Source: Candidatus Omnitrophota bacterium
Lineage (GTDB): Bacteria > Omnitrophota > Gorgyraeia > Gygaellales > Profunditerraquicolaceae
NCBI GenBank assembly: GCA_042577285.1
Contig: JBHPDM010000001.1
Location: forward strand, 16,665-80,664
DNA length: 64,000 nt
Reading direction: 5' to 3'
The notes beneath the pieces are model-generated. The model saw only the letters and a list, made by a program, of their open reading frames with translations, did not search any database and was not told the origin of the DNA. Numbering within the stretch: the stretch's first letter is position 1; every line of letters starts with the position of its first letter. This document shows, in pieces, positions 2,204 to 28,640 of this stretch. The position numbers and the translations under genes were made by a program.

Positions 2204-3768
2204 TGAGTTCACTTGGCATATATTTCGGGCCGAAGGTGATCGGCATAACCGAGACTAAGGGCAAGAAGGTGGCGCAGAATGCCAAGATCCCGGTTTCTGT
2301 GCTTTCCCCTGGAGAATTAGAGGAGAAGGTCCCAGACGACGTAAAGATGGTCGCCTTGATCAAGGAGGAATTAAGGAAGCACGTAATCGAGGCAAAGGAT
2401 GCTTCGATATCACTTTCCGGCAAGGATCTGGTGGTGAGGACATTTGAGATGCCGGCTTTACCTCCCAGCGAGCTGGCTAATGCGGTTAACTTCGAAGCCA
2501 GAAAGTATATCCCCTTTAAGACTGAGGACTTGATCACGGATTTCCACTTTAAGACTGACAAGAAGGCACGCAGGCATCTGGTTCTATTTGCCGGGATAAA
2601 GAGGGATGTGTTGCAGAAATATTCTTCGGTCATAAGTCAGCTGGGGATAAAAGTCAATAATCTGGAGTATTCGGGGTTTTCTTTATTGAGGTTTCTGAAA
2701 TCCACAGGGCTCGGGCTTAAGGGGGTCAGCTGTCTGGTATGCATTGACGGCGAAGAGGAAGATGAGGGGATCGTTATGGTCTTGGAGGACGGCTTCCCGT
2801 TGTTTACCCGTGATATTTCCCTTTCCGGGGGAGGCGCTGCATACTCTGGGGCTCAGCCTGCCGCAGTAAAGGATGGAGCAGCGGACACTGAAAAGCTGAA
2901 ATCTGAGATCAGGATTTCACTGGATTATTTTCACCGGAAATTTACGGCAAAGAAGATCGCTAAGGTCTATTTTGTCTCTCCCGGGGAGCGCAGAGCCGAC
3001 CTGGAGAGTTTTGCCGCTGAGGCAGGATTAAGCGCGCAGTTTATAGATGTTGCTAAGTATACAGGTAAGGAAGCGCCCTTTTCTTTAAGTTTTGTCAAGA
3101 GCTACGGAGCGGCTGTGTTTAATAAGGTAAATACCGGCCTAAGGGTGAAATTTACAATCACCAGGATAAAAGAGAGGCCCCCTCAAAATAAGGGACTTAA
3201 CCTTGAGCTTAAGGAAATAGCATCCTTGTTATCCGGTGTAAGGATCAATGTAAAGAGCGTGATCCTTGGGCTGTTGATCTGCCTGGCAGTTTTCGGGATC
3301 GGTATCTACAGGATGCTCCCGCTGCGTAAGGAATTAGAGGCGATCAAGGCGAGAGAGACGCAGGCTGCAGGAGTTAACGCACAAAGCAGCAACCAGGTGT
3401 TGACGGGTGTGGCTGATACCTATAGGAAGAAAGTAAGCACAATGGATAAGCTGGTCAAGGAGCAGCTTTATCTGACTGAGGTGCTTGATGCGATTCCCCG
3501 CCTTGTCCGGGAGGGGATGTGGCTGGTTGATTTCTCCTTCGAGAAGCAGGGTGAAGGCGCTGTGCTTATCTTGGGAGGAGTAGTTGACCTTAGCGACAGT
3601 AATCGGGAGTTTGATTCCGTGAATGAGTTCTTGTCTAAACTTAAGCAATCCCCTGTTTTTATAAAGTATTTTGCTGAGATCAAGATCATTTCTTCAGAGG
3701 TCAGTCAGATCGAGCAGGAGGCGATTACCCGCTTTGTGATCTCCTGCCGCAGCAAAAAAGGAAGCTAG
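2203..3768 (+). CDS. pilMN: type IV pilus assembly protein PilM fused to PilN
   Basis: 521 aa. The N-terminal ~330 aa are an actin-like ATPase PilM (GIYFGPKVIGITE…). A single TM follows (VILGLLICLAVFGIGIY) and then a PilN-like periplasmic coiled-coil region. Gene order is pilM(N)-O-P-Q. Confidence 0.75.
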   Translation: MSSLGIYFGPKVIGITETKGKKVAQNAKIPVSVLSPGELEEKVPDDVKMVALIKEELRKHVIEAKDASISLSGKDLVVRTFEMPALPPSELANAVNFEARKYIPFKTEDLITDFHFKTDKKARRHLVLFAGIKRDVLQKYSSVISQLGIKVNNLEYSGFSLLRFLKSTGLGLKGVSCLVCIDGEEEDEGIVMVLEDGFPLFTRDISLSGGGAAYSGAQPAAVKDGAADTEKLKSEIRISLDYFHRKFTAKKIAKVYFVSPGERRADLESFAAEAGLSAQFIDVAKYTGKEAPFSLSFVKSYGAAVFNKVNTGLRVKFTITRIKERPPQNKGLNLELKEIASLLSGVRINVKSVILGLLICLAVFGIGIYRMLPLRKELEAIKARETQAAGVNAQSSNQVLTGVADTYRKKVSTMDKLVKEQLYLTEVLDAIPRLVREGMWLVDFSFEKQGEGAVLILGGVVDLSDSNREFDSVNEFLSKLKQSPVFIKYFAEIKIISSEVSQIEQEAITRFVISCRSKKGS

Positions 3769-3769
3769 G

Positions 3770-4285
3770 ATGGATATAATAGGGTTGATAAATAATCATA
3801 AAAATAAACTCTTGAGCCTTACGGTAGTGGTAGTGGCGCTTGCGGCAGCAGCCTATATCTATAAATTTCAAGGGGGGAGCTTGGAATCCCTGCGCGCACA
3901 AAAGAATGCGCAGATCAGGAAGAATCAGATCCTCAGTGAAATCGAGAAGCTGCAAGCGTCATTGGCGGTGTATCAAGATGCGCTCAAAAAGAAGGATATC
4001 TCGGTATTCATGAATAACATTAATAATATCGTAAAGGAATCAAATGTTAGTATCGCCTCGATCAAACCGCTTAAGGAGAAGGACCGGGGGGTCTACGTGG
4101 AGTTTTTCTTTGCTCTTAGCGTGACGGCACGGGATTATCATCAGCTGGCGAAGTTTATCAGTGAGATCGAGAATTATTCGGATATTTTTATCGTTGACAG
4201 TATGAAGATAAGTCAGAAAGGAATAGTTCGCGGCGAAGGGACTAAGGCAGATTTAGTGATCAGTACGTTATTCTTTAAGGGGTAG
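3770..4285 (+). CDS. pilO: type IV pilus assembly protein PilO
   Basis: 171 aa with an N-terminal TM and a coiled-coil. Its position between pilN and pilP and its size fit PilO. Confidence 0.6.
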   Translation: MDIIGLINNHKNKLLSLTVVVVALAAAAYIYKFQGGSLESLRAQKNAQIRKNQILSEIEKLQASLAVYQDALKKKDISVFMNNINNIVKESNVSIASIKPLKEKDRGVYVEFFFALSVTARDYHQLAKFISEIENYSDIFIVDSMKISQKGIVRGEGTKADLVISTLFFKG

Positions 4286-11367: not shown

Positions 11368-13881
11368 ATGATGATAAAGAAGTACGCCGCGCCCCTGATT
11401 GCTTTAGCTCTGGTATTATCCCTGAATATATATTTTCGTGCCTTTCCAGTACATTTTCCCCAACTAAGAGTACAGGCCAGAGATAACGTAGAACGCGATA
11501 TTCTGCGTAGCGCAGTTATCCAAGTAGAAAAGAACTTTCCTGATTATGATCAAAGGGCAAAGGAAAGGCTAATAGACGGCGCAATCAATGACTATAAAAC
11601 CCGCAATAAAACTGCGGTAAAGAGGGAGATTGAGCGCGAACACAACCGGTTAAAGGATCGGTATCAGGATGCCGCAGGCCGGACCTATCTCATGGAGCTG
11701 GATTGCTGGAAGTGGGCCCGCTACGTAGATAATACAGTCAAGCTCGGGCATCCGGGAGATAAGGTGGTAAATGGAAGGCAATGGGATGCTTTAATGTTTG
11801 CTCCAAATGGAAGGTTCTTGGAGTGGAATCATTTTTTGTACTATTTGCCAGCATTTCTATACAAAGGCTTCAGTATTTTTTGGAAGCTTCCTCTTTTTAA
11901 CTTTTTGTTTTACCTTCCAATAATATTCGCAGCGGTTTTCATCAGTCTTCTATTTTTATTTTGCTATAGAAATTGGGGCCAAATTACGGCAATCATTGCA
12001 TGTTTATTTGTGGGACTCGCTCCGGTATTTTTAAATCGGAGTACAGCAGGCTGGTTTGACACCGATATCCCAAATCTACTTTTTCCGCTTCTGATTGTTT
12101 GGACGTATCTGGCGGCGGAAAGCAGATCCGGTTATCTGCGCAGGGGGCTCTGGTTCTGTTTCTCTGCTTTCTGGATGGGGATTTTTAGTTTTACCTGGAT
12201 ATACTGGTGGTTTATTTTTGCCATAATTATTATTTATGAGCTATTCTCTTTGGCTAATCAGGGATTACTTTATATTCAGAATAGAGAGAAGGAGCTTAGC
12301 TTTTTTAAGCAGCATCTTTTCAGCTTAAGCGTATTCATTGCTTTTACTGGTCTTTGGGTAATGCTCTTTTCCGGGAGAGAACCATTTCAGCACCTATTTT
12401 CGCAGTTTTTCGGTGCCCTGACGCTTAATAAGCCATTATTGTCCGGTATCTGGCCTAATGTCTTCTCTACCGTAGGAGAGCTCAAAAGGGCTGACAGTCT
12501 GCGCATTGCCAATGCCGTAGGCGGCGTATATCCATTTTCGCTGGCGCTTATCTGTTTTGCGCTTTGGTTTTACCGTATTGCGCGCAGCAAAGAGAACTCC
12601 GGGTTTAAACATGAAGCAACTTTACTCCTGACATTCTGGTTCCTGAGTATGTTCTTTGCCTGCCAGAAGGGTGTAAGATTTGCGGTATTTCTTCTGATTC
12701 CTTTAGGGGTTTTTCTTGGCTGGACTGCCGATGACCTGTACGTTCGGGTTAAGGCCGCGGGCAAAAAAGTACTCAGGTATTTAGTCATCGCAGTTATAGC
12801 GGCCCTTTGCGTGCTACTGGTAATTAATGGCTACGAGGCAGCACGTCAATCATTCCCGCTAATGGAGGATTCCTGGTATCGAGGTTTGACGGTAATTAAG
12901 AGAGATACGCCAAAGGATGCGGTGATCAATTCCTGGTGGGATTTCGGGGATTGGTTTAAGGTGGTAGCAGGCCGAAGGGTGATTTTTGATGGGCATCAAC
13001 AGAATACTCCGCGCGCTTACTGGATGGCGAAGGTTTTGCTCAGCCGCAACGAAGAGGAAGCGATAGCGATTCTTAGGATGTTAAATAATGGCGGTAACCA
13101 GGCTTACGAGCTGTTGAATCGGCAGCTTGAGGACCCTTTTAAGGCAGTACTTTTACTGGAGGATCTGCTATTATCTAAGCCTGATTTTGCCAGAGAGAAA
13201 TTGCTTAATCTCGTACCGGCTGAGGTTGCGCAGCAGGTTTTAAGTGTCCTCTTTGTCGAACCGGGCAATGCTTATTTTGTTGTGGATCCTACGATGCAAA
13301 GGAAGATACCGGCGATCTCCTATCTGGGGGAGTGGGATTTCCATAAGGTTTTTATCGCCCAGGGGCGTGATAGGCTAACAGAGAAGCAAATCGTCGATCG
13401 CCTGGCAGAGTTCGGTATGGATCAGCAGGAGAGTAGGAAGTTATACTCCGAGTCGTCATTGCTCTCCTCTGGGGCAAGGCTGGAAGATTGGGTTTCTAAC
13501 AGGTTAAGATTTTATTCCAGGCTCACGCTCGGGGATGAACGCGGGGGCCTGGTATATTTTGATAATGGGCTAGTTTACAACTTGAAGGAGCAAACGGTTT
13601 ATATTTATTCGGAGAGACAGCGCAGATACCTGTCGCCTAAGAGACTGTTTATTTTTGACGAAGGAATATTAAAGGAAAAAGCTTTTTCCGATGGCGAACT
13701 GGATTATTCAGTGATGGTGCTTAAGCGGCCAGCCGGGTATGCGGCGGTGCTACTTGATGAAGAACTAGCGAAGAGTCTTTATGTACGGCTATTTTTCTTT
13801 AACGGAGAAGGCCTGAAGCATTTTAAGCTCTTTACGCAGGAGCCCGGCGCTTTTAAGGTATTCAAGATAGATTGGAATTAA
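11368..13881 (+). CDS. STT3/AglB/PglB-family oligosaccharyltransferase (GT-C fold), polytopic membrane protein
   Basis: 837 aa. WWDFG at nt 12934..12948 matches the WWDYG catalytic motif of STT3/AglB/PglB. TVGE at nt 12469..12480 is a TIxE-like EL5 motif. The N-terminal half has ~13 hydrophobic TM segments, and the soluble C-terminal domain is ~330 aa. The start lies 2 nt after the last minor pilin stop. Confidence 0.7.
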   Translation: MMIKKYAAPLIALALVLSLNIYFRAFPVHFPQLRVQARDNVERDILRSAVIQVEKNFPDYDQRAKERLIDGAINDYKTRNKTAVKREIEREHNRLKDRYQDAAGRTYLMELDCWKWARYVDNTVKLGHPGDKVVNGRQWDALMFAPNGRFLEWNHFLYYLPAFLYKGFSIFWKLPLFNFLFYLPIIFAAVFISLLFLFCYRNWGQITAIIACLFVGLAPVFLNRSTAGWFDTDIPNLLFPLLIVWTYLAAESRSGYLRRGLWFCFSAFWMGIFSFTWIYWWFIFAIIIIYELFSLANQGLLYIQNREKELSFFKQHLFSLSVFIAFTGLWVMLFSGREPFQHLFSQFFGALTLNKPLLSGIWPNVFSTVGELKRADSLRIANAVGGVYPFSLALICFALWFYRIARSKENSGFKHEATLLLTFWFLSMFFACQKGVRFAVFLLIPLGVFLGWTADDLYVRVKAAGKKVLRYLVIAVIAALCVLLVINGYEAARQSFPLMEDSWYRGLTVIKRDTPKDAVINSWWDFGDWFKVVAGRRVIFDGHQQNTPRAYWMAKVLLSRNEEEAIAILRMLNNGGNQAYELLNRQLEDPFKAVLLLEDLLLSKPDFAREKLLNLVPAEVAQQVLSVLFVEPGNAYFVVDPTMQRKIPAISYLGEWDFHKVFIAQGRDRLTEKQIVDRLAEFGMDQQESRKLYSESSLLSSGARLEDWVSNRLRFYSRLTLGDERGGLVYFDNGLVYNLKEQTVYIYSERQRRYLSPKRLFIFDEGILKEKAFSDGELDYSVMVLKRPAGYAAVLLDEELAKSLYVRLFFFNGEGLKHFKLFTQEPGAFKVFKIDWN

Positions 13882-13962
13882 AGGATAGGGCTGTCCCTCG
13901 CGCCTGGAAGGGATAGGTTGGCGCTCGGGATGCGCCCCGGAGGAAAGTAATAGATACGGGAC

Positions 13963-16321: not shown

Positions 16322-16352
16322 AAGCGATGCTACAAATAGGTTATAGCACTAT

Positions 16353-16503
16353 GGGGCTGTCCATTAATGTAATAGCGTAGGACGCCCCAGCAAGTAATAG
16401 GAGGGGCTGCCCTTTAAATTAATAGCGAAGGGCGCCCAAGCAAGTAAAATTCAGGGGCTGCCCCTTAAATTAATAGCGAAGGGCGCCCCATCAAACGATA
16501 GCA
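16353..16503 (+). repeat. three degenerate ~50-nt direct repeats, each beginning with the tRNA-Ala 5' acceptor sequence GGGGCTG and forming a GC hairpin
   Basis: Copies at 16353..16400, 16401..16453 and 16454..16503. Each is GGGGCTGCCCC-(T)TTAAATTAATAGCGAAG-GGCGCCCC. The 17-nt core TTAAATTAATAGCGAAG also recurs in the tRNA-Met leader. Confidence 0.75.
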
Positions 16504-23897: not shown

Positions 23898-25448
23898 ATG
23901 AAAAAAGAAAGAAAAAAAAGAAAGTGCACCAAGAAGGATGTCGCCGCGATCATCGTCAAGGGTAAAAAGAAGGGGTATCTTACTTTTGACGACGTAAACG
24001 ACATGCTCCCTGATAATATTTCAACTTCTGAGGATATTGACCGTGTCTTTGAGATCCTCGGAAGCGAAGGGATAAAGGTGCTTGAGAATCAAAGCGAAAA
24101 GGACTTTAAGAGTACGGGGGCGCAAACCCAGAAGGCCGAAGCGCTTAGCCAGCAGTCGCGCGTTGAGGAGAAATTCCTGCCGCTTGATGATCCGGTTAAG
24201 ATGTATCTTAAGCAGATGGGTTCGATTTCACTACTTTCAAGAGAGAACGAGCTGAAGCTGGCAAAGAAGATCGAGGAGGCAGAGAACAATTTTAAGCGTG
24301 AAGCGCTTAAGACCAGATTTATCCGTAACCTGATCCTCGAAGTAGCGGATAAGGTTCTGGAGGAGAGGTTGAATTTTGAAGAGGTCCTCAAGGAGGATGT
24401 CAAGATCAGCAGGACTGGGATCTTGCGCAAAGTCAAAAGGCTGATCGACAGGGCAAGGAAGACGCGCAGCGTAAGAAAAAGTATCGAGTCCTTGATGGGA
24501 TTTACTGCTGTAACTTCGGTGTTTGAGGAGGCATCACGCGGTCTTAGCGCCCTGATCAGGGAGTTTGGTTCCCTGAAGAGGCGTCAGAGCCGTACTAAGG
24601 ATAGCCGTCTGCGCAGCCAAATGATCCTCTCGCAGATCGGAGAGCCATACTTGCAGACCAGGCAGCAGATGAAGATGATCAGGCTTACACATATGAAGTT
24701 TAACCGCGCAAAGAAGCAATTGGTCGAGGCAAACCTTAGGCTGGTAGTGAGTATTGCAAAGAAATACACCAACAGGGGGCTGTCGTTTCTGGACCTGATA
24801 CAGGAGGGGAATATCGGCCTGATGCGCGCAGTGGAGAAGTTTGAATACAGGAGGGGATATAAGTTTTCTACCTATGCGACCTGGTGGATAAGGCAGGCGA
24901 TCACACGCGCCATAGCTGACCAGGCGCGTACGATCAGGATCCCGGTACACATGACCGAGACGATCAATAAGATCATCCGGTTTTCGCGCGTCTTCGTCCA
25001 GAAGCACGGAAGAGAACCGACGCATGAAGAGATCTCTCATAAGATGAGCCTCCCGCAGAATAAGATCAAGGCGATCCTGAAGGTAGCGCAGGAGCCGATC
25101 TCTCTGCAGACACCGATCGGTGACGAAGGGGATACTCATTTCGGTGATTTTATCCAGGATAAAAAGGCAGTTTCCCCGGCGAACGCAACCGTACACACGA
25201 TGCTCAAGGAAGAGATGGGGGCTGCTTTGAACACTCTTACCGAACGGGAAAAGAAGATCCTTCTCTTAAGGTTCGGTGTGAATGACGGCTCCTCGCGTAC
25301 ATTGGAGGAAGTGGGCAATATATTTAAGGTGACCAGGGAGAGGGTGCGCCAGATCGAGGCAAAGGCCTTGAAGAAACTTAAGCATCCTACACGCTCCAGA
25401 AGGCTGCGCGCATTTCTGGACATGTCACTCGTCCACCAAAGGGATTAA
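23898..25448 (+). CDS. rpoD: RNA polymerase sigma factor RpoD
   Basis: Region 2 [54 protein letters not shown], and region 4 at the C-terminus. Confidence 0.9.
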
Positions 25449-25460
25449 CCTTCCAAAAAT

Positions 25461-25499
25461 TAAGGGGCATTTTACTTTTTACAAGTAAAGTGCCCCTTA
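25461..25499. terminator. long hairpin (bidirectional terminator candidate) between rpoD (+) and the minus-strand gene
   Basis: TAAGGGGCAtTTTACT-ttttaca-AGTAAAGTGCCCCTTA. A/T runs flank it on both strands. Confidence 0.5.
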
Positions 25500-25515
25500 A
25501 TGACCGCAGTTCGTT

Positions 25516-25851
25516 CTATTCCTCTACTACTGCGTCAAACACGTAATCAGGTTTATAGAGCGGCTCGTAGTCCTTTGGTACTGCTGCGGGAAAACTTACT
25601 ATATCCCAGATACCTGAGAATATGCGGCCGATCGCTAAAGCCGTTCCCTTGACTGCCCCGGCGAATATACCGATCGCTGCATTATTGCTGGCCGTCCACT
25701 CCTCATCGATCGTTTGCGGGATCTCAAGGATACCAGTAAGGACGTTGCCTATACCGCGGGTTAATTTGTCAGCCGGGCTTTTTGCGAAGGCCACGGAAGA
25801 TAAGCCTACAATCAAGACAAGCGCTAAAACGATACTTACTACTTTTTTCAT
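25516..25851 (-). CDS. secreted small protein, TIGR04073-like (exosortase system-associated family)
   Basis: Signal peptide present. KLTRGIGNVLTGILEIPQTI and IWDIVSFPAAVPKDYEPLYKPDYVFD match what I recall of the TIGR04073 family. Strong RBS AAGGAGGT. Confidence 0.5.
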   Translation of the reverse strand: MKKVVSIVLALVLIVGLSSVAFAKSPADKLTRGIGNVLTGILEIPQTIDEEWTASNNAAIGIFAGAVKGTALAIGRIFSGIWDIVSFPAAVPKDYEPLYKPDYVFDAVVEE

Positions 25852-25935
25852 GCTTTACCTCCTTTTGCTTTAAATTATCACATAATCGAGCTTTGTCAAT
25901 AAGATTGATTGGATAGAGAAGTGAGGAATTTTTAC

Positions 25936-25964
25936 TTGCCAAAAGCAGGTAAAAATTGTAATAT
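25936..25964 (+). promoter_or_regulatory. sigma70-like promoter TTGCCA-17-TAATAT for the tRNA-Met/tRNA-Val transcript
   Basis: TTGCCA at 25936..25941, a 17-bp spacer, TAATAT at 25959..25964. A divergent minus-strand -35 (TTGACA, rc of 25894..25899) may serve the 25516..25851 gene. Confidence 0.5.
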
Positions 25965-26001
25965 ATAGTATTGAATTTCAGTAGGTTAAGTAGTTTTTGG
26001 T

Positions 26002-26210
26002 TATGGCGGGCCCATAGCTCATACATTAAATTAATAGCGAAGTATGGCTCTGGGCTTAGGAAGTTATAGCGGGCCCTCCCTCGTTGCTGATTCAGATTAG
26101 CTGCAACTCGGGATGGGCTAATGAAGTAATAGCGGGCCCATAGCTCTCCCTCGTCTCCGGGGTTTCAAAGCTGGCGACTCGGGATTCGCTATGGGGTAAC
26201 AGGTAAATTC
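26002..26210 (+). repeat. three degenerate direct repeats in the tRNA-Met leader, each starting with the tRNA-Met 5' acceptor sequence GGGCCC(ATAGCTC)
   Basis: Copies start near 26006, 26069 and 26134. Shared blocks are gggcccatagctc, ctccctcgt and actcgggat(g/t)(g/c)gcta. The first copy contains the 17-nt core TTAAATTAATAGCGAAG (26026..26042) also found in the tRNA-Ala leader. Confidence 0.7.
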
Positions 26211-26282
26211 GGGCCCATAGCTCAGCGGTAGAGCAGGTGACTCATAATCACTTGGTCGGAGGTTCGATCCCCCCTGGGCCCA
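26211..26282 (+). tRNA. tRNA-Met (anticodon CAT; elongator type, or tRNA-Ile2 if lysidinylated)
   Basis: GGGCCCATAGCTCAGCGGTAGAGCAGGTGACTCATAATCACTTGGTCGGAGGTTCGATCCCCCCTGGGCCCA. G1:C72 pairing makes an initiator unlikely. CCA is not encoded. One A:C mismatch in the T-stem. Confidence 0.8.
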
Positions 26283-26302
26283 TGAGATTTTGCGCAGCAA
26301 AA

Positions 26303-26470
26303 GCGAATCCCGAGCATCTAGCTATAGCCAGGAGGATGCGAGGGGGAATCCCGAGCATCTAGCTATAGCCGGGAGGATGCGAGGGGGAATCCCGAGCATC
26401 TAGCTATAGCCAGGAGGATGCGAGGGGGAATCCCGAGCATCTAGCTATAGCCGGGAGGATGCGAGGGAGA
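26303..26470 (+). repeat. 41-bp tandem direct repeat, 4 copies (GAATCCCGAGCATCTAGCTATAGCC(A/G)GGAGGATGCGAGGGG)
   Basis: The cccgagcatc anchor recurs at 26309, 26350, 26391 and 26432 (period 41). Copies are contiguous with no spacers. Confidence 0.85.
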
Positions 26471-26478
26471 ATAGATTT

Positions 26479-26754
26479 ATGTGGTATGTCTATATCCTCA
26501 AATGTAGGGATAGCTCGTTTTATGCTGGCATAACGAACAATATTCAAAGAAGGTTGGCAAGGCACAATAGTGGTAAAGCGTCAAAATATACAAGAGCTAG
26601 AAGACCAGTTAAATTGCTGTATGTAGAAAGCTTTGATTCTAAGGATAGTGCCTTACATAGAGAAATAGAAATCAAAAGCTTTAGTAGGGACAATAAGAAT
26701 AAGTTGATAAAATTTGGGCTTGGTCGGAGGTTTCCCTCGGCTGCAAAGATTTAG
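26479..26754 (+). CDS. GIY-YIG nuclease family protein (single-domain, YhbQ/UPF0213-like)
   Basis: MWYVYILKCRDSSFYAGITNNIQRRLARHN…ALHREIEIKSF carries the GIY…YIG…R…E motifs. Confidence 0.8.
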   Translation: MWYVYILKCRDSSFYAGITNNIQRRLARHNSGKASKYTRARRPVKLLYVESFDSKDSALHREIEIKSFSRDNKNKLIKFGLGRRFPSAAKI

Positions 26755-26776
26755 ATTGTTTCGCCTCGGGACAAGC

Positions 26777-26950
26777 GATCCCCCCTGGGCCCATGAGATT
26801 TTGCGCAGCAAAAGCGAATCCCGAGCATCTAGCTATAGCCAGGAGGATGCGAGGGGGAATCCCGAGCATCTAGCTATAGCCGGGAGGATGCGAGGGAGAA
26901 TCCCGAGCATCTAGCTATAGCCGGGAGGATGCGAGGGAGAATCCCGAGCA
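26777..26950 (+). repeat. duplicated tRNA-Met 3' end (17 nt) + leader + 3.3 copies of the 41-bp repeat
   Basis: 26777..26818 (GATCCCCCCTGGGCCCATGAGATTTTGCGCAGCAAAAGCGAATC) is identical to 26266..26307. The cccgagcatc anchor recurs at 26820, 26861, 26902 and (truncated) 26943. Confidence 0.85.
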
Positions 26951-26999
26951 GACGGCGCATCAGCATTCAGATACGAGGGAGAATAGATTGATGAGACAA

Positions 27000-27076
27000 G
27001 GGCGATTGGCTCAGTTGGTTAGAGCGCCACACTCACATTGTGGAGACCAGAGGTTCAAGTCCTCTATCGCCCACCA
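27000..27076 (+). tRNA. tRNA-Val (anticodon CAC)
   Basis: GGGCGATTGGCTCAGTTGGTTAGAGCGCCACACTCACATTGTGGAGACCAGAGGTTCAAGTCCTCTATCGCCCACCA. Anticodon loop CTCACAT. CCA is encoded. Confidence 0.85.
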
Positions 27077-27089
27077 TTAAAGAAAAAGG

Positions 27090-27818
27090 ATGCCAAATAC
27101 AGACCTTAAGTCACAGATAAAGAACCTCGTGCAGTTGCAGAAGGTTGATTCTCAGATCCACGACCTGAAATACGAAAAGAGCCAGTTGCCCCAAGAGATA
27201 GAGGCGATTACCGCTTCCTTTGAGGCAAAGAAGCAGAGTCTGGCTGAGCTTGAGAAGGAGACCCTTGACCTGGAGGTCAAGAAGAAGGAGGGGGAGGTGG
27301 ACCTGGCAGCAAAAGAGGAGCAGGCAAAGAAATTTCAGGGACAACTTTATTCGCTGAAGACCAACGAAGAGTATAAGGCGATGCTGCAGCAGATCGAAGG
27401 GGTTAATGCCGATGCCTCTGTCGTGGAAGATAAAATCCTGGAGCTGCTTGAAAAAATCGAAGAATCAAAGAAGGCTATCGTTAAGGAAAGAGAAAGGCTC
27501 AAAGAGGAGGAAAAGTTATCAGGCCAGGAGAAGGCTAAGATCGAGGTGCGGATAAAGGAGATCGACGGTCAACTGGCGCAACTGGATGCACAGAGAAAAC
27601 AGTTCTCTCCGGGAGTGGATGCCAATATCCTTAAGCAGTACGAGAGGATCCTTGCAAACCGGGACGCGCTGGCGATAGTCGATATACAGGATAACGCTTG
27701 TCATGGGTGTAATATGTCCGTGCCGCCGCAGGTGATAAACTTGATCAGGATGTATGAACGTATTGTGACCTGCGAGGTATGCAATAGGATATTATATATA
27801 AAGGATGAAGAAGCTTAA
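27090..27818 (+). CDS. coiled-coil protein with C-terminal C4 zinc-ribbon (COG1579-like)
   Basis: Long heptad-repeat region. The C-terminus has CHGCNMSVPPQ…CEVCNRILY. Confidence 0.6.
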   Translation: MPNTDLKSQIKNLVQLQKVDSQIHDLKYEKSQLPQEIEAITASFEAKKQSLAELEKETLDLEVKKKEGEVDLAAKEEQAKKFQGQLYSLKTNEEYKAMLQQIEGVNADASVVEDKILELLEKIEESKKAIVKERERLKEEEKLSGQEKAKIEVRIKEIDGQLAQLDAQRKQFSPGVDANILKQYERILANRDALAIVDIQDNACHGCNMSVPPQVINLIRMYERIVTCEVCNRILYIKDEEA

Positions 27819-28203
27819 TATCTACATTGACGGAGCGTCTAAGGGTAACCCCGGTCCGGCAGGGATCGGGGTGGTGATGTCTTACGACGGCGAAGTTTTA
27901 AAGAACATATCCGTTAATATCGGGATTGCTACGAATAATTTTGCAGAATATACCGCTTTGATCTATGCCCTTCAAGAAGCGCTGATCATGAAGGCGGAGG
28001 AATTAAATATAAAATCCGACAGCCTGCTGCTTTGCAAGCAGATAAACAGAGAATATAAGGTTAAAAACGTAAATATCATCAGGCTTTATAAGCAGGCGCA
28101 GCATTTGATCACAGCCTTTAAGCAGGTAAAAGTCAGCCATATTCGGCGCGAGTTTAACAGCGGCGCTGATAAACTGGCAAACCAGGCTGTGAAGAAGGCT
28201 TGA
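27805..28203 (+). CDS. rnhA: ribonuclease HI family protein
   Basis: MKKLNIYIDGASKGNPGPAGIGVVM…FAEYTALIYAL shows the RNase H fold. Confidence 0.7.
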   Translation: MKKLNIYIDGASKGNPGPAGIGVVMSYDGEVLKNISVNIGIATNNFAEYTALIYALQEALIMKAEELNIKSDSLLLCKQINREYKVKNVNIIRLYKQAQHLITAFKQVKVSHIRREFNSGADKLANQAVKKA

Positions 28204-28209
28204 AATTCA

Positions 28210-28640
28210 GGAGGCAGGCGGAGAGTGGCCGCCCGCCAAAGTTCTTTGGCGGGAGGAAAGTCCGGGCTCCACAGGATAAGCGCGCTCTGTAACACAGAGC
28301 CTCGCCGCAATTCGTGGCGGGAGGGAAAGTGCCGCAGAGAATAGACTGCCGATAGTCCGCTACTGCGGACATGGCGATGGTGAAAAGGTAGTGTAAGAGA
28401 CTACCGTTGGCTGCAGCGATGCGGCTTGCACGGAAAACCCCGCGTGGAGAAAGGCGAAATAGTCCCGTCAATCCCATATTTAATGGGAATAAAAGTGGTC
28501 CGCTTGAAATCCGGCATTCGCTGGATTGACGGGAGGGTAAGCTGCTTGAGTCCCGGCGGCAACGTCGGGATCGAGAGGAATGGTCACTGCGGTTGCGGTT
28601 AATCGCACCAAGACAGAACCCGGCTTATTCCGCCTGCTTT
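28210..28640 (+). ncRNA. rnpB: RNase P RNA (bacterial type A), rnpB
   Basis: GGGAGGAAAGTCCGGGCTCCACAGG (P4 5' strand, 28251..28275) and ACAGAACCCGGCTTA (P4 3' strand, 28612..28626). P1 pairs GGCAGGCGGA (28214..28223) with TCCGCCTGC (28629..28637). GGTAAGCTGCTTGAGTCC and GNRA-type loops are present. Confidence 0.9.

Follow-up and report, generated by a model that had tools for sequence, protein, structure and literature searches.

A small GIY-YIG nuclease cassette with hairpin ends in bacterial tRNA genes: probably a long-lived, homing-endonuclease-like resident that duplicates the tRNA end

The window analysed here (the whole stretch of DNA, 64 kb) contains, between its tRNA-Met and tRNA-Val genes, a cassette of about 0.5 kb that encodes a small GIY-YIG nuclease and is accompanied by a second copy of the tRNA-Met 3' end. 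This cassette is probably a long-lived, homing-endonuclease-like resident of tRNA genes, which keeps the tRNA intact by end duplication; since the gene has two copies of its end, the tRNA remains functional. The region is organized as follows, with the basis of each assignment in parentheses:

26211-26282, + strand: tRNA-Met(CAT), intact (ARAGORN; Rfam tRNA 67.2 bits)
26283-26304, + strand: leader hairpin (TTTTGC GCA GCAAAA), outer part of the left end (fold -4.3 kcal/mol, z -2.3)
26305-26468, + strand: four tandem 41-bp units (TRF; 41-mer search; plus-strand matches of hairpin model R1)
26469-26478, + strand: spacer from the last hairpin to the ATG (sequence)
26479-26754, + strand: GIY-YIG nuclease gene, 91 aa (PF01541)
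26719-26732, + strand: copy of tRNA-Met nt 42-55, CTTGGTCGGAGGTT (14/14 identical to 26251-26264; family D6)
26733-26775, - strand: right terminal hairpin, inverted (TCCCTCG...CTCGGGA on the top strand), then CAAG (R1 34.5 bits)
26776-26793, + strand: copy of tRNA-Met nt 56-73, CGATCCCCCCTGGGCCCA (score 18 versus a shuffled maximum of 9)
26794-26815, + strand: leader hairpin, copy 2 (identical to copy 1 in the alignment)
26816-26938, + strand: three further 41-bp GA-hairpin units (3 substitutions versus copy 1)
26939-26993, + strand: divergent fourth GA hairpin (26942-26980) and GAATAGATTGATG (R1 30.2 bits; alignment)
27000-27076, + strand: tRNA-Val(CAC), without a cassette here (Rfam 72 bits)

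Alignment of the two copies delimits a repeated block at 26251-26481 and 26719-26993, start codon ATG included, with a period of 511 bp in the window. An earlier note on this DNA had reported an identical repeat at 26266-26307 and 26777-26818; the duplication is real, and these limits were too short. Copy 2 of the block is broken by an insert of 43-44 nt, made up of the hairpin at 26733-26771 and CAAG, and the stretches 26265-26439 and 26776-26950 are 98% identical over 175 nt. Unique sequence between the copies is confined to codons 2-80 of the GIY-YIG gene (26482-26718). The tRNA tail repeated at 26776-26793 comprises 18 nt, not 17 as first counted: 26265-26282, or C56-A73, beginning with the CGA of the T-loop. 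The duplication breakpoint within tRNA-Met thus falls in the T-loop, between T55 (26264) and C56 (26265), and not at the 3' end of the tRNA, where the insertion had originally been placed. The right hairpin interrupts the T-loop of the second tRNA-Met copy, and the last 11 codons of the nuclease gene come from this hairpin and from the preceding copy of tRNA nt 42-55, which codes for G-R-R-F in the protein tail. In relatives, a segment of this type often corresponds to the local tRNA, including a T55C variant. At the far end, GAATAGATTGATG is a copy of the spacer and start codon that no ORF follows, and the second GAGGGAGAATAGATT ends 10 nt upstream of tRNA-Val, so that the array does not stop directly before that gene as had been stated. 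A plain assembly artefact is an unlikely source of the duplication, because the block copies differ at several defined sites and independent assemblies have the same layout. The repeated block of about 230 nt (tRNA 3' part, leader, array, spacer, and ATG) is probably an extension by recombination between repeats.

The two arrays are near-perfect rather than perfect as previously described: TRF gives 4.1 copies with 96% matches for 26305-26472 and 3.3 copies with 97% matches for 26816-26950, copy numbers that are uncertain in a short-read MAG. The 41-mer occurs seven times (0 expected), with variation at unit positions 26 (A/G) and 41 (G/A). The fourth hairpin of copy 2 (26942-26980) has a different sequence. 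The units lie head to tail without spacers, and a CRISPR-like array was therefore rejected. Each 41-bp unit is a 38-nt "GA hairpin" of the form (T)CCCGAG-stem-loop-stem-CGAGGG(R). Far from being a passive target sequence, the unit is the terminal hairpin of the element, inverted at the other end; the array is its left terminal hairpin, amplified.

An inverted right hairpin is present at the same position and in the same orientation in 12 other cassettes (11 with the ORF and one ORF-less). Wherever model R1 was run (L001, L081-L085, and L087), its plus-strand matches precede the ORF and its minus-strand matches follow it; for L161, L162, L164, and L170, inspection of the sequence gives this orientation too, and the L088 hairpin is a 19-nt mini version. 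A hairpin in the leader position was found in the 12 related loci whose flanks were displayed, with differing stem sequences. What the inverted terminal repeats have in common is mostly the conserved hairpin ends and the structure. The case for this structure is carried by covariation and not by folding energy: in the stems of 25 hairpins, 94.5% of cells are paired (77% in shuffles), with 37 double changes against 11.4 +/- 2.7 and at most 15 in slid controls, while single-sequence fold energies of the GA hairpins are no better than those of shuffles (z -0.5 to +0.5). Rfam holds no family for the hairpins and matched only tRNA, RNase P, and, in L001, a group I intron. A kink-turn was considered and rejected for the window hairpins, whose GA/GA internal loop is symmetric and has no bulge; the sole K-turn-like case, with a 3-nt bulge, is the hairpin of the tmRNA-linked locus L037. 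In the 64 kb, there is one ORF copy of the cassette and, elsewhere, two solo hairpins of this family:

1203-1240, - strand: solo hairpin overlapping the stop of ORF 945-1223 (R1 38.0 bits)
13894-13930, - strand: solo hairpin 13 nt past the stop of ORF 11368-13881 (R1 32.9 bits)

The GAGGGAG in the 3' arm of the last hairpin is the sole SD-like sequence before the ATG and is a putative Shine-Dalgarno sequence; in relatives, the GAGGG of the hairpin lies 5-17 nt ahead of the ATG.

Residues 1-73 of the encoded protein match PF01541 with 76.8 bits (cut-off 22.6, E 1.6e-21), and it matches PDB entries of UPF0213 (1ZG2, E 2e-19; 1YWL, E 5.6e-16); NCBIfam gave no match for it. Across 34 homologs, Y15, G17, R25, H29, and E62 are invariant and Y5 nearly so, residues to which catalytic roles are assigned in the GIY-YIG family. 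The AlphaFold model (pLDDT 91, pTM 0.81) has a disordered tail past residue 80 (low confidence for 81-91), and Foldseek aligns 71-74 residues to the nuclease domains of Slx1 and HIGLE (rmsd 1.7-2.2 A). With the catalytic domain alone ordered in 91 aa, the protein has no DNA-binding module of the kind present in I-TevI and the Seg proteins. The nuclease ORF is under purifying selection (dN/dS 0.07-0.12). An exact-protein look-up with the window's GIY-YIG and DUF164 proteins returned no contig, although there is an identical NCBI protein (P0001). An intron-encoded endonuclease of the group I type was rejected, as Rfam found no intron match in 24500-28500; the tRNA-Tyr of L001 does have a group I intron, separate from the GIY-YIG ORF. 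Prokaryotic stand-alone minimal GIY-YIG domains have been placed in the Slx1 group, and a prokaryotic Slx1-like domain fused to a TrmH-type tRNA methyltransferase has also been described (Dunin-Horkawicz 2006, PMC1564403).

Related loci (numbered with L) were searched for with an alignment of 12 sequences. The flanks of 164 GIY-YIG hits hold 71 tRNA or tmRNA genes: 37 of them share the strand of the GIY-YIG gene and sit 0-400 nt upstream of it, whereas no more than 6 are on the opposite strand, anywhere in the flanks. A close subfamily of 13 loci in Omnitrophota-like genomes has the full order of tRNA, leader hairpin, GA hairpin, GIY-YIG gene, inverted hairpin, and tRNA 3'-end copy, on five tRNA species: Met, Tyr, Val(GAC), Val(CAC), and Lys(CTT). 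The left-hand tRNAs all score 57-77 bits with Rfam. The right-hand copy, present in 12 of the 13, starts in the T-loop at nt 55/56 +/- one and scores 18-22 (shuffled maximum at most 13). Most relatives repeat just 18-22 nt and have single hairpins. In about half of the tRNA- or tmRNA-adjacent GIY-YIG loci the right-hand copy is missing, all of them in more distant subfamilies. Of the 12 close-subfamily loci with a right-hand copy, 11 have identical tRNA copies, and in L081 they differ at 1 nt. In L087 (tRNA-Met), L161 (tRNA-Val), and L175 (tRNA-Thr), the displaced tRNA end is unlike the functional gene and matches that of a relative; in the window, the two tRNA-Met 3' copies are identical. L154 and L085 carry two GIY cassettes each. 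In L162, a full element, an ORF-less element, and a solo end form a tandem decay series, and hairpin 3 of this locus is a chimera of hairpins 1 and 2.

Comparison of orthologous neighbourhoods, which the earlier note had proposed, revealed empty sites. The order rpoD...tRNA-Met, tRNA-Val, DUF164 is common to the window and to L084, L085, L087 (by tblastn), L161, and L170 (in the listed gene calls). The cassette sits on tRNA-Met in the window, L084, L161, and L170 and on tRNA-Val in L085 and L087, and L084 has an ORF-less version on tRNA-Val. In L085, the gap between tRNA-Met and tRNA-Val is empty and measures 28 nt; conversely, the DUF164/CT398 zinc-ribbon gene of the window starts 13 nt past tRNA-Val, at the site that is occupied in L085 and L087. 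A neighbour-joining tree and identity matrix of 20 nuclease proteins, which are short and give modest resolution, show no grouping by tRNA: the nuclease of L084 (Met) is 80% identical to that of L162 (Val) and 60% identical to that of the window (Met). The core of the proposal, a homing-like insertion of a GIY-YIG cassette, is supported by the other tRNAs, the empty sites, and the tree, except that the block of about 230 nt is no simple target-site duplication. Same-site cassettes in L161 and L170 show no more than 64-69% identity, and their synonymous sites are saturated; dS between same-site cassettes of different genomes ranges from 0.8 to saturation. Judged by these divergences, the window insertion is not recent, and because same-site cassettes are this old, the window copy may be a resident fixed long ago instead of an active element.

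Upstream of tRNA-Met, the window contains three further hairpin units:

26000-26062, + strand: 5' unit 1 (direct repeat family D2; DNA fold -9.2 kcal/mol, z -2.2)
26063-26125, + strand: 5' unit 2 (R1 34.1 bits, minus strand; fold z -2.5)
26126-26210, + strand: 5' unit 3 (R1 38.3 bits, minus strand)

Unit 1 consists of a partial tRNA-Met (nt 1-14) plus 8 nt of upstream flank, which form a hairpin with a near-complement around the loop TTAAATTAATAGCGAAG, a motif common to units upstream of tRNA-Ala. Unit 2 carries GCGGGCCC (tRNA-Met nt 1-6), a 38-nt inverted-type hairpin (26077-26113), and TGGGCT. Unit 3 comprises GGGCCCATAGCTC (tRNA-Met nt 1-13), an inverted-type hairpin (26147-26184, 38 nt), the complement GCTATGGGG, and a spacer, and we read it as an ORF-less relic of a 5'-side insertion. 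A mirror-image family does exist, in which tRNA nt 1-13/15 are duplicated on the 5' side; in L085, L174, and L175, the GIY-YIG ORF lies between the partial 5' tRNA copy and the intact tRNA. All three units upstream of tRNA-Met would be remnants, lacking the ORF, of mirror-image 5'-end insertions.

In the homing-like scheme that we favor, the nuclease would break DNA in or beside a tRNA gene, more likely by recognizing DNA structure (the T-arm or the cruciform hairpins) than a long sequence, and the donor cassette would be copied in, with tRNA sequence serving as portable homology on both sides. The model for the copying step would be the mobile endonuclease ORFs (mORFs) of fungal mitochondria, where a replacement 3' end is brought in and the native one is left downstream. 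Such mORFs carry a replacement gene 3' end in atp6 of Allomyces and in atp6, atp9, cox2, and nad3 of Glomus, and a displaced end that is unlike the functional end and matches a relative is their signature (PMC3630166). The likeness extends to the order of gene core, inserted 3' end, endonuclease ORF (GIY-YIG in atp9), and displaced native 3' end, to the continued function of the invaded gene, and to the displaced ends of L087, L161, and L175. In contrast, the cassette resides in a bacterial chromosome and targets tRNA instead of protein genes, its two tRNA copies show no difference in the window or in 10 of the 11 further close-subfamily loci with a copy, its nuclease is a minimal domain of about 80 aa, its ends are conserved inverted hairpins, its displaced copy is hairpin-interrupted, and ORF-less derivatives occur. 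Several points weigh against the homing reading. A T-loop target would leave the intact left-hand tRNA exposed as well, and no immunity mechanism is evident. The age of the same-site cassettes, the strong conservation of the right-hand tRNA copy and the hairpins, and the loci of distant subfamilies that lack a right-hand copy also count against it. In addition, characterized GIY-YIG homing endonucleases have a DNA-binding domain, which the window protein does not.

Other known systems resemble the cassette in part. Tyrosine-integrase elements, as Williams reportedly described in 2002, target tRNA and tmRNA genes with a sublocation in the T-loop; they likewise have an intact tRNA at one end and a direct repeat from T-loop to 3' end at the other, and distant relatives of the cassette also use tmRNA. 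However, the cassette has no integrase and measures about 0.35-0.5 kb rather than kilobases, its close relatives use many tRNAs, and its hairpin ends have no counterpart there. An integrase island was rejected for the window itself: there is no tyrosine or serine integrase ORF between the repeats, and the element is shorter than 0.8 kb. SegB of phage T4 is a free-standing GIY-YIG homing endonuclease in a tRNA gene cluster; its gene, too, lies between tRNA genes and presumably spreads by break repair with co-conversion of the flanks, but Seg proteins are phage-encoded, have 200 or more aa with DNA-binding domains, and come without tRNA-end duplication or terminal hairpins. REP/RAYT and IS200/IS605 are hairpin-ended bacterial elements with HUH/Y1 nucleases. 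They share with the cassette short imperfect palindromes with a strand-asymmetric mismatch, a small nuclease gene, and solo and tandem copies, whereas their hairpins are on the same strand at both ends and they neither target tRNAs nor duplicate gene ends. Slx1 and plant HIGLE, which are structure-specific GIY-YIG nucleases, share the fold of the cassette protein, and BH0048 and EF2693 share its sequence family, UPF0213. Slx1 acts in repair together with Slx4; UPF0213 has no assigned function, and the entries for these proteins say nothing on mobility. Full-text literature searches found no description of tRNA-linked small GIY-YIG cassettes, which is not proof of absence.

Among the alternatives, a DNA transposon seems unlikely. 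The GIY-YIG protein would be its sole transposition nuclease, the 38-nt inverted hairpins its terminal repeats, and the tRNA 3' repeat a long target-site duplication; staggered cuts guided by structure, with one strand opened at the T-loop and the other at the 3' boundary of the tRNA, would make the intact tRNA automatic. Inverted ends flanked by direct repeats of 18-22 nt, tRNA copies that are specific to each tRNA species and identical in 11 of 12 loci, the mirror-image duplication of nt 1-13/15, MITE-like ORF-less versions, the switches between tRNA species in the nuclease tree, and a fold that resembles structure-specific nucleases cutting branched DNA are all consistent with it. Yet duplications of 18-230 nt far exceed usual target-site duplications, the differing displaced tRNA pieces of L087, L161, and L175 fit replacement from a donor better, and the mimic of tRNA nt 44-55 inside the right hairpin is awkward for a simple scheme of terminal repeats plus target duplication. 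Only 2 solo hairpins lie elsewhere in the 64 kb, the GIY-YIG gene is the only ORF and no recognized transposase (DDE, HUH, serine, or tyrosine) accompanies it, and to our knowledge no GIY-YIG protein performs strand transfer. An accident confined to this locus, in which unequal crossover or slippage in the 41-bp array duplicated about 510 bp around an unrelated nuclease gene, is very improbable. The tandem arrays and the 511-bp period, the start codon repeated in copy 2, and the chimeric hairpin of L162, a visible recombination between hairpin units, speak for such events; yet the layout of gene, hairpins, and tRNA copy recurs in 12 other cassettes on five tRNA species, mostly with single hairpins and an 18-22-nt repeat only, and in them the breakpoint always falls in the T-loop and an inverted hairpin always interrupts copy 2. 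As the sole explanation, the accident is, on the reading of these loci, already contradicted; unequal crossover in the array, which the earlier note had offered as an alternative, does not explain array-less loci that share the architecture, and may explain the extra length of the duplication.

It is decidedly improbable that the locus is not mobile at all and that the GIY-YIG protein is a host factor of tRNA or RNA metabolism, co-transcribed with tRNAs, for which the hairpins and the tRNA copy would be RNA signals in processing, stability, or translational control and the duplications by-products of replication slippage in a hairpin-rich region. The noncoding parts speak for it: 18/18 positions of the right tRNA copy are identical, against 68-73% at third codon positions and 43% in the next flank, so that this copy and the hairpins, conserved far above neutral, could equally be a pointer to a host or RNA-level function. 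The strong purifying selection and long residence, the constant co-orientation of the gene with its tRNA, the SD-like GAGGG in a hairpin arm 5-17 nt ahead of the ATG, the likeness of the tandem G.A motif to RNA motifs that bind proteins, and one tmRNA-linked relative whose hairpin is K-turn-like, with a bulge of 3 nt, point the same way, as does the fusion of an Slx1-like domain to a TrmH-type tRNA methyltransferase (PMC1564403). However, orthologous loci have the gene on different tRNAs or lack it, the gene tree is independent of tRNA identity, and DNA rearrangement has left its footprints in ORF-less copies, decay series, and tRNA fragments that are truncated or displaced. In the sense RNA, moreover, the right hairpin has destabilizing U.C/C.U mismatches, its G.A version being on the other DNA strand only, and UPF0213 family members in Firmicutes do not lie beside tRNAs. 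A tRNA-like minihelix, in which the ORF tail pairs with the acceptor strand of the tRNA copy, was considered separately and not adopted: its fold has a z of 0.03 in the window and a significant -2.4 in L001, and in L081 the pairing fails by eye.

Beyond the homing-like reading, a wider one is put forward tentatively, as possible. The cassette may belong to an unrecognized class of prokaryotic mobile elements in which a stand-alone Slx1-like GIY-YIG domain of about 80 aa is the sole mobility protein and which, guided by DNA structure and not by sequence, enters any tRNA or tmRNA gene and always regenerates an intact tRNA. The nuclease of such elements would recognize the cloverleaf or cruciform loops of tRNA genes together with its own 38-nt, G.A-mismatched terminal hairpins, with entry at the T-loop here and at the D-loop or anticodon loop in sister families.

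tRNA genes are classic landing sites of large integrase-borne islands, and the combination of an intact gene with a repeated 3' end, known from those islands, is found here in a cassette of a few hundred bases. The cassette looks like a bacterial mobile element, apparently undescribed so far, that can enter a tRNA gene and leave it unbroken. That the 18-nt tRNA copy and the hairpins are so unusually conserved is a concrete puzzle. If the reading is correct, it would account for features that could confuse annotation in the loci of Omnitrophota and Patescibacteria type examined here, namely incomplete tRNA pieces, hairpins in tandem, and tRNA genes that look split, and would provide a very small structure-guided nuclease with its hairpin pair. 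It would also give a first biological role to UPF0213, whose structures were solved in 2005 and which has no assigned role, and would carry the strategy of gene-end-duplicating mobile ORFs beyond fungal mitochondria, into the tRNA genes of bacteria and possibly of archaea.

The small GIY-YIG gene of the window belongs to a cassette (a leader hairpin, one or more 38-nt GA hairpins, the ORF, and an inverted hairpin, 3' of an intact tRNA) that recurs on different tRNAs, has empty sites and ORF-less derivatives, is bounded by covarying inverted hairpins, and carries a nuclease gene under selection. Across this stretch, the genes run in the order dnaG, rpoD, a small reverse-strand ORF, tRNA-Met, GIY-YIG, tRNA-Val, a DUF164/CT398 zinc-ribbon gene, RNase H, RNase P RNA, yebC, and ruvC. 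The RNase P RNA lies 1.1 kb 3' of the cassette locus, a position also kept in L085, L087, and L161 (L-numbers denote related GIY-YIG loci from other genomes or metagenomes, each with its own coordinates).

26211–26282, plus strand: tRNA-Met(CAT), tRNA gene call
26479–26754, plus strand: GIY-YIG ORF of 91 aa, PF01541
27000–27076, plus strand: tRNA-Val(CAC), tRNA gene call
28213–28500+: bacterial RNase P RNA (RF00010, 153.6 bits, match clipped by the search range)

An earlier note had proposed that a GIY-YIG cassette was inserted between the two tRNAs with duplication of its target. The repeats on which it relied exist: there are two 41-bp arrays of 4.1 and 3.3 copies (96–97% matches), the 41-mer occurs seven times in the window against zero expected, and a 175-nt block is present twice (98% identity, 511-nt offset). 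The duplication itself stands, but its extent had been understated; alignment of both blocks gives a longer and more structured repeat, 26251–26481 corresponding to 26719–26993. The duplicated block starts inside tRNA-Met and ends just past the ATG, and the unique DNA between its copies consists solely of nuclease codons 2–80 (26482–26718). In the second copy, the tRNA piece is split into nt 42–55 (26719–26732) and nt 56–73 (26776–26793) by a 43–44-nt insert, and the fourth hairpin has a sequence unlike the 41-bp units. This extra-long duplication is also found in L081, L162, L170, and L084, and it requires that repeated left ends recombined with each other or that a further insertion took place beside an older left end. 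The unequal crossover that the note had offered as an alternative is retained as a secondary process that may explain the extra length.

The 41-bp units are members of a hairpin family. A search of the window for CCCTCG-N24-26-CTCGGGA on either strand gave 13 matches (0.09 expected). The motif has a single orientation in the eight array hairpins (seven 41-bp units and the divergent fourth of copy 2), and the insert at 26733–26771 is an array hairpin in the opposite orientation. Others lie elsewhere:

26077 and 26147, inverted orientation: hairpins upstream of tRNA-Met (motif search)
1203–1240, inverted orientation: solo hairpin at the 3' end of a plus-strand ORF (motif search and covariance model)
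13894–13930, inverted orientation: solo hairpin at the 3' end of a plus-strand ORF (motif search and covariance model)

The genes next to the two solo hairpins are unrelated, and one hairpin overlaps the stop codon; these solo copies may be relics, terminator-like elements, or targets. Alignment of 25 distinct hairpins from the window and related loci gave a 38-nt consensus with invariant CCCGAG...CGAGGG ends and an inner stem of 4–5 bp that varies freely while keeping its pairing. Pairing holds in 94.5% of stem cells (77% in shuffles), and double-sided stem changes number 37 (11.4 ± 2.7 in shuffles, at most 15 in slid controls). Because the conserved GA dinucleotides face each other, the internal loop is a tandem G.A/A.G in one strand and T.C/C.T in its complement, so that the hairpin is strand-asymmetric. 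The covariance model recovers exactly the 13 motif copies in the window and, across 885 kb of fetched loci, matches solely beside close relatives of the window nuclease. Single-sequence folding energies of the hairpins are unremarkable, and the structural case therefore rests on covariation; an Rfam search returned no model matching the hairpins. A variant, CCTGAG...CGAAGG with two tandem G.A motifs, accompanies more distant tRNA-linked GIY-YIG genes (L004, 3675–3890, as 63-nt tandem repeats; L140, ~2960–2985; L154, 1566–1595).

Nuclease homologs were located in species-representative genomes and metagenomes, and further loci by exact protein look-up. The flanks of 164 GIY-YIG matches held 71 tRNA/tmRNA genes, 37 of them on the same strand within 400 nt upstream, nine on the same strand within 400 nt downstream, and only six on the opposite strand at any distance. 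Firmicutes members (YazA-like genes) had no tRNA/tmRNA neighbor in the flanks examined. In the closest subfamily (56–69% identity to the window protein), the order of parts is constant, starting with the tRNA, the leader hairpin, and at least one GA hairpin 5–17 nt 5' of the ATG. The final codons of the ORF enter GGTCRGAGGTT, a mimic of tRNA nt 44–55, and are followed by the inverted hairpin, sometimes an extra small hairpin, and then a right-hand copy of the 3' end of the local tRNA. This copy, present in 12 of 13 loci, starts within one base of the T-loop CGA; its scores are 18–22, compared with a shuffled maximum of at most 13.

Right-hand tRNA copies in the closest subfamily
tRNA-Met: window, L161, L170
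tRNA-Tyr: L001, L083
tRNA-Val-GAC: L081, L082, L162
tRNA-Val-CAC: L085, L087
tRNA-Lys-CTT: L088, L164

In more distant subfamilies, the theme varies, as on Gly (L116), Ser (L154), and Leu (L086) tRNAs; in about half of all tRNA/tmRNA-adjacent GIY-YIG loci, a search for a second tRNA copy found none. Other GIY-YIG genes lie 160–290 nt downstream of tmRNA (L037, 3474–4000; L122; L151; L159), and a 3-nt bulge lends a kink-turn-like geometry to the hairpin of L037, CCCCGAGCA...TGC-GTC-GAGGGG. Two different selfish elements share the tRNA-Tyr(GTA) of L001: a group I intron in the anticodon loop (3646–3871; RF00028, 90.6 bits) and, at the 3' end, a GIY-YIG cassette. The tRNA-Lys(CTT) cassette of L164 (2340–4800) stands directly 5' of archease, RtcB (an RNA ligase), and serS, which may be coincidence or a tie to tRNA repair.

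Orthologous neighborhoods supply evidence for mobility. By tblastn, the DUF164 gene is common to the window, L084, L085, and L087, and rpoD, RNase H, yebC, and ruvC are also found in L085 and L087; listed gene calls place tRNA-Met, tRNA-Val, and DUF164 in the window's order in L161 and L170. The cassette sits on tRNA-Met in the window, L084, L161, and L170, and on tRNA-Val in L085 and L087; L084 has an ORF-less relic on tRNA-Val. Two intervals serve as the empty-site control that the note had called for: tRNA-Met and tRNA-Val are 28 nt apart in L085, without a cassette, and tRNA-Val and DUF164 are 13 nt apart in the window, where L085 and L087 have theirs. A single tRNA-Val in L162 is followed by a decay series of full element, ORF-less element (~25 nt between hairpins), and solo left end, with a tRNA 3' copy between successive members. 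L082 has an ORF-less element 3' of tRNA-Cys and a tRNA-Val(TAC)-like gene (1488–1541) that ends exactly after GGTT (nt 55), the cassette breakpoint; an intact tRNA-Val(GAC) lies 36 nt beyond. The nuclease tree is incongruent with tRNA identity: the L084 (Met) nuclease is 80% identical to that of L162 (Val-GAC) and 60% to that of the window (Met), and the nearest relative of the L161 (Met) nuclease is L083 (Tyr). In L087, a displaced tRNA-Met fragment (1797–1813) equals the tRNA-Met of its relative L085 and differs from the functional gene at seven mostly paired positions, which indicates that the functional tRNA-Met was replaced. L161 (~3010–3065) also has a displaced fragment unlike the adjacent functional gene, and L175 is a similar case. 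By analogy, this pattern matches a signature of mobile ORFs in fungal mitochondria, which arrive with a substitute for the end of the gene, so that displaced and functional ends differ (PMC3630166).

The 5' side of tRNAs is altered as well:

26000–26210: three tandem units upstream of tRNA-Met (repeat search and folding)
16504: tRNA-Ala(CGC), with three similar units directly upstream (16330–16503)

Each unit at tRNA-Met comprises 6–14 nt of its 5' end plus upstream flank, then a hairpin, then the complement. At the same position in L085 (2368–2830), a partial copy of tRNA-Met (nt 1–15) and the intact tRNA flank another, distinct GIY-YIG ORF. Its family, with weak T5orf172 similarity, is common in Patescibacteria, on the 5' side of tRNAs (also L174, L175, and L178, ~1400–1900), with a partial copy of tRNA nt 1–13/15 and CCCCGACG-type hairpins upstream; in L174 and L175, the ORF ends inside the tRNA, its stop codon being the TAG of nt 8–10. 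By comparison with these loci, the window units are most plausibly ORF-less relics left by mirror-image 5' insertions. The tRNA-Ala units are tandem hairpins of ~51 nt, each opening with the first 7–8 nt of the tRNA (GGGGCTGY); the first has a variant loop with three mismatches, and in the other two the loop is TTAAATTAATAGCGAAG. This 17-mer is also the loop in the first of the tRNA-Met units (26026–26042), and it was absent from the 160 related loci L001–L160. L174 also has (~1837–2010) a tRNA-Val-like gene whose D-loop is split by ~150 nt of ORF-free hairpins; the gene may be dead, or the insert may resemble an intron.

The window protein matches PF01541 and two NMR structures of UPF0213, a family without assigned function, and its catalytic residues are conserved among homologs. 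An NCBI entry for Candidatus Omnitrophota, the group to which the window's MAG belongs, has the identical 91-aa protein. The predicted structure of the protein (pLDDT 91) aligns with the Slx1 and plant HIGLE nuclease domains (1.7–2.2 Å over 71–74 residues), and it has no DNA-binding domain. HIGLE resolves Holliday junctions. The substrate of Slx1, according to PDB entry titles, is branched DNA. Minimal stand-alone prokaryotic GIY-YIG domains have been grouped with Slx1 (Dunin-Horkawicz et al., 2006; PMC1564403). A natural hypothesis is that of a putative structure-guided enzyme acting on the cruciform-prone palindromes and the hairpin-forming tRNA T-arm.

The ORF is under purifying selection, six pairs giving dN/dS of 0.07–0.12. 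Synonymous sites have diverged far even where cassettes occupy the same site (dS 0.76–0.98 for L082/L162 and L085/L087) and are saturated between the window and other cassettes, which makes the cassettes old residents.

The noncoding parts are conserved all the same. L085 and L087 are 83% identical in the left end, 87% in the right end, and 18/18 in the right-hand tRNA copy, compared with 68% at third codon positions and 43% over the adjoining 60 nt of flank.

Between L082 and L162, hairpin stem changes are compensated, and the tRNA copy is likewise unchanged. Repeated blocks within a genome are 98–100% identical, whereas synonymous sites are saturated when cassettes from different genomes are compared. 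The nt 44–55 mimic at the ORF end is often the same as the local tRNA; with a T55C variant, it matches at 11/11 positions in L161 and 9/11 in L170. This variant changes the protein tail, disordered in the structure model, from RFPSA to RSPSA, and the ORF tail is probably constrained as nucleic acid, not as protein.

We infer that the nuclease would break DNA within or next to a tRNA gene and that the cassette would then be copied in from a donor, with tRNA sequence providing homology on both sides (the intact tRNA on the left, the 18–22-nt copy on the right). Because this homology is tRNA sequence, the element could enter the same tRNA in any genome, whatever its neighbors. In the second copy, the hairpin that interrupts the T-loop would limit productive exchange to nt 56–76, which agrees with the sharp breakpoint. 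True transposition through a long, structure-guided staggered cut would account more simply for the identical tRNA copies and for switches between tRNA species, but it leaves unexplained the displaced ends unlike the functional gene, and we know of no GIY-YIG protein that performs strand transfer; we consider it unlikely. Still less probable is a role in host RNA processing, which would explain the strong conservation but not the rearrangements. Homology-directed copying from a donor is the reading that we prefer.

This strategy resembles that of fungal mitochondrial mobile ORFs, which duplicate a gene end, and also the geometry of att sites in tRNA islands that carry an integrase. The components set it apart: a minimal UPF0213/Slx1-like nuclease, G.A-mismatch hairpin ends, breakpoints in the tRNA T-loop, and a location in bacterial chromosomes. 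A search of full-text literature found no description of a tRNA-linked small GIY-YIG cassette. Tentatively, the cassette may represent a distinct class of structure-guided mobile element, though this is open to doubt.
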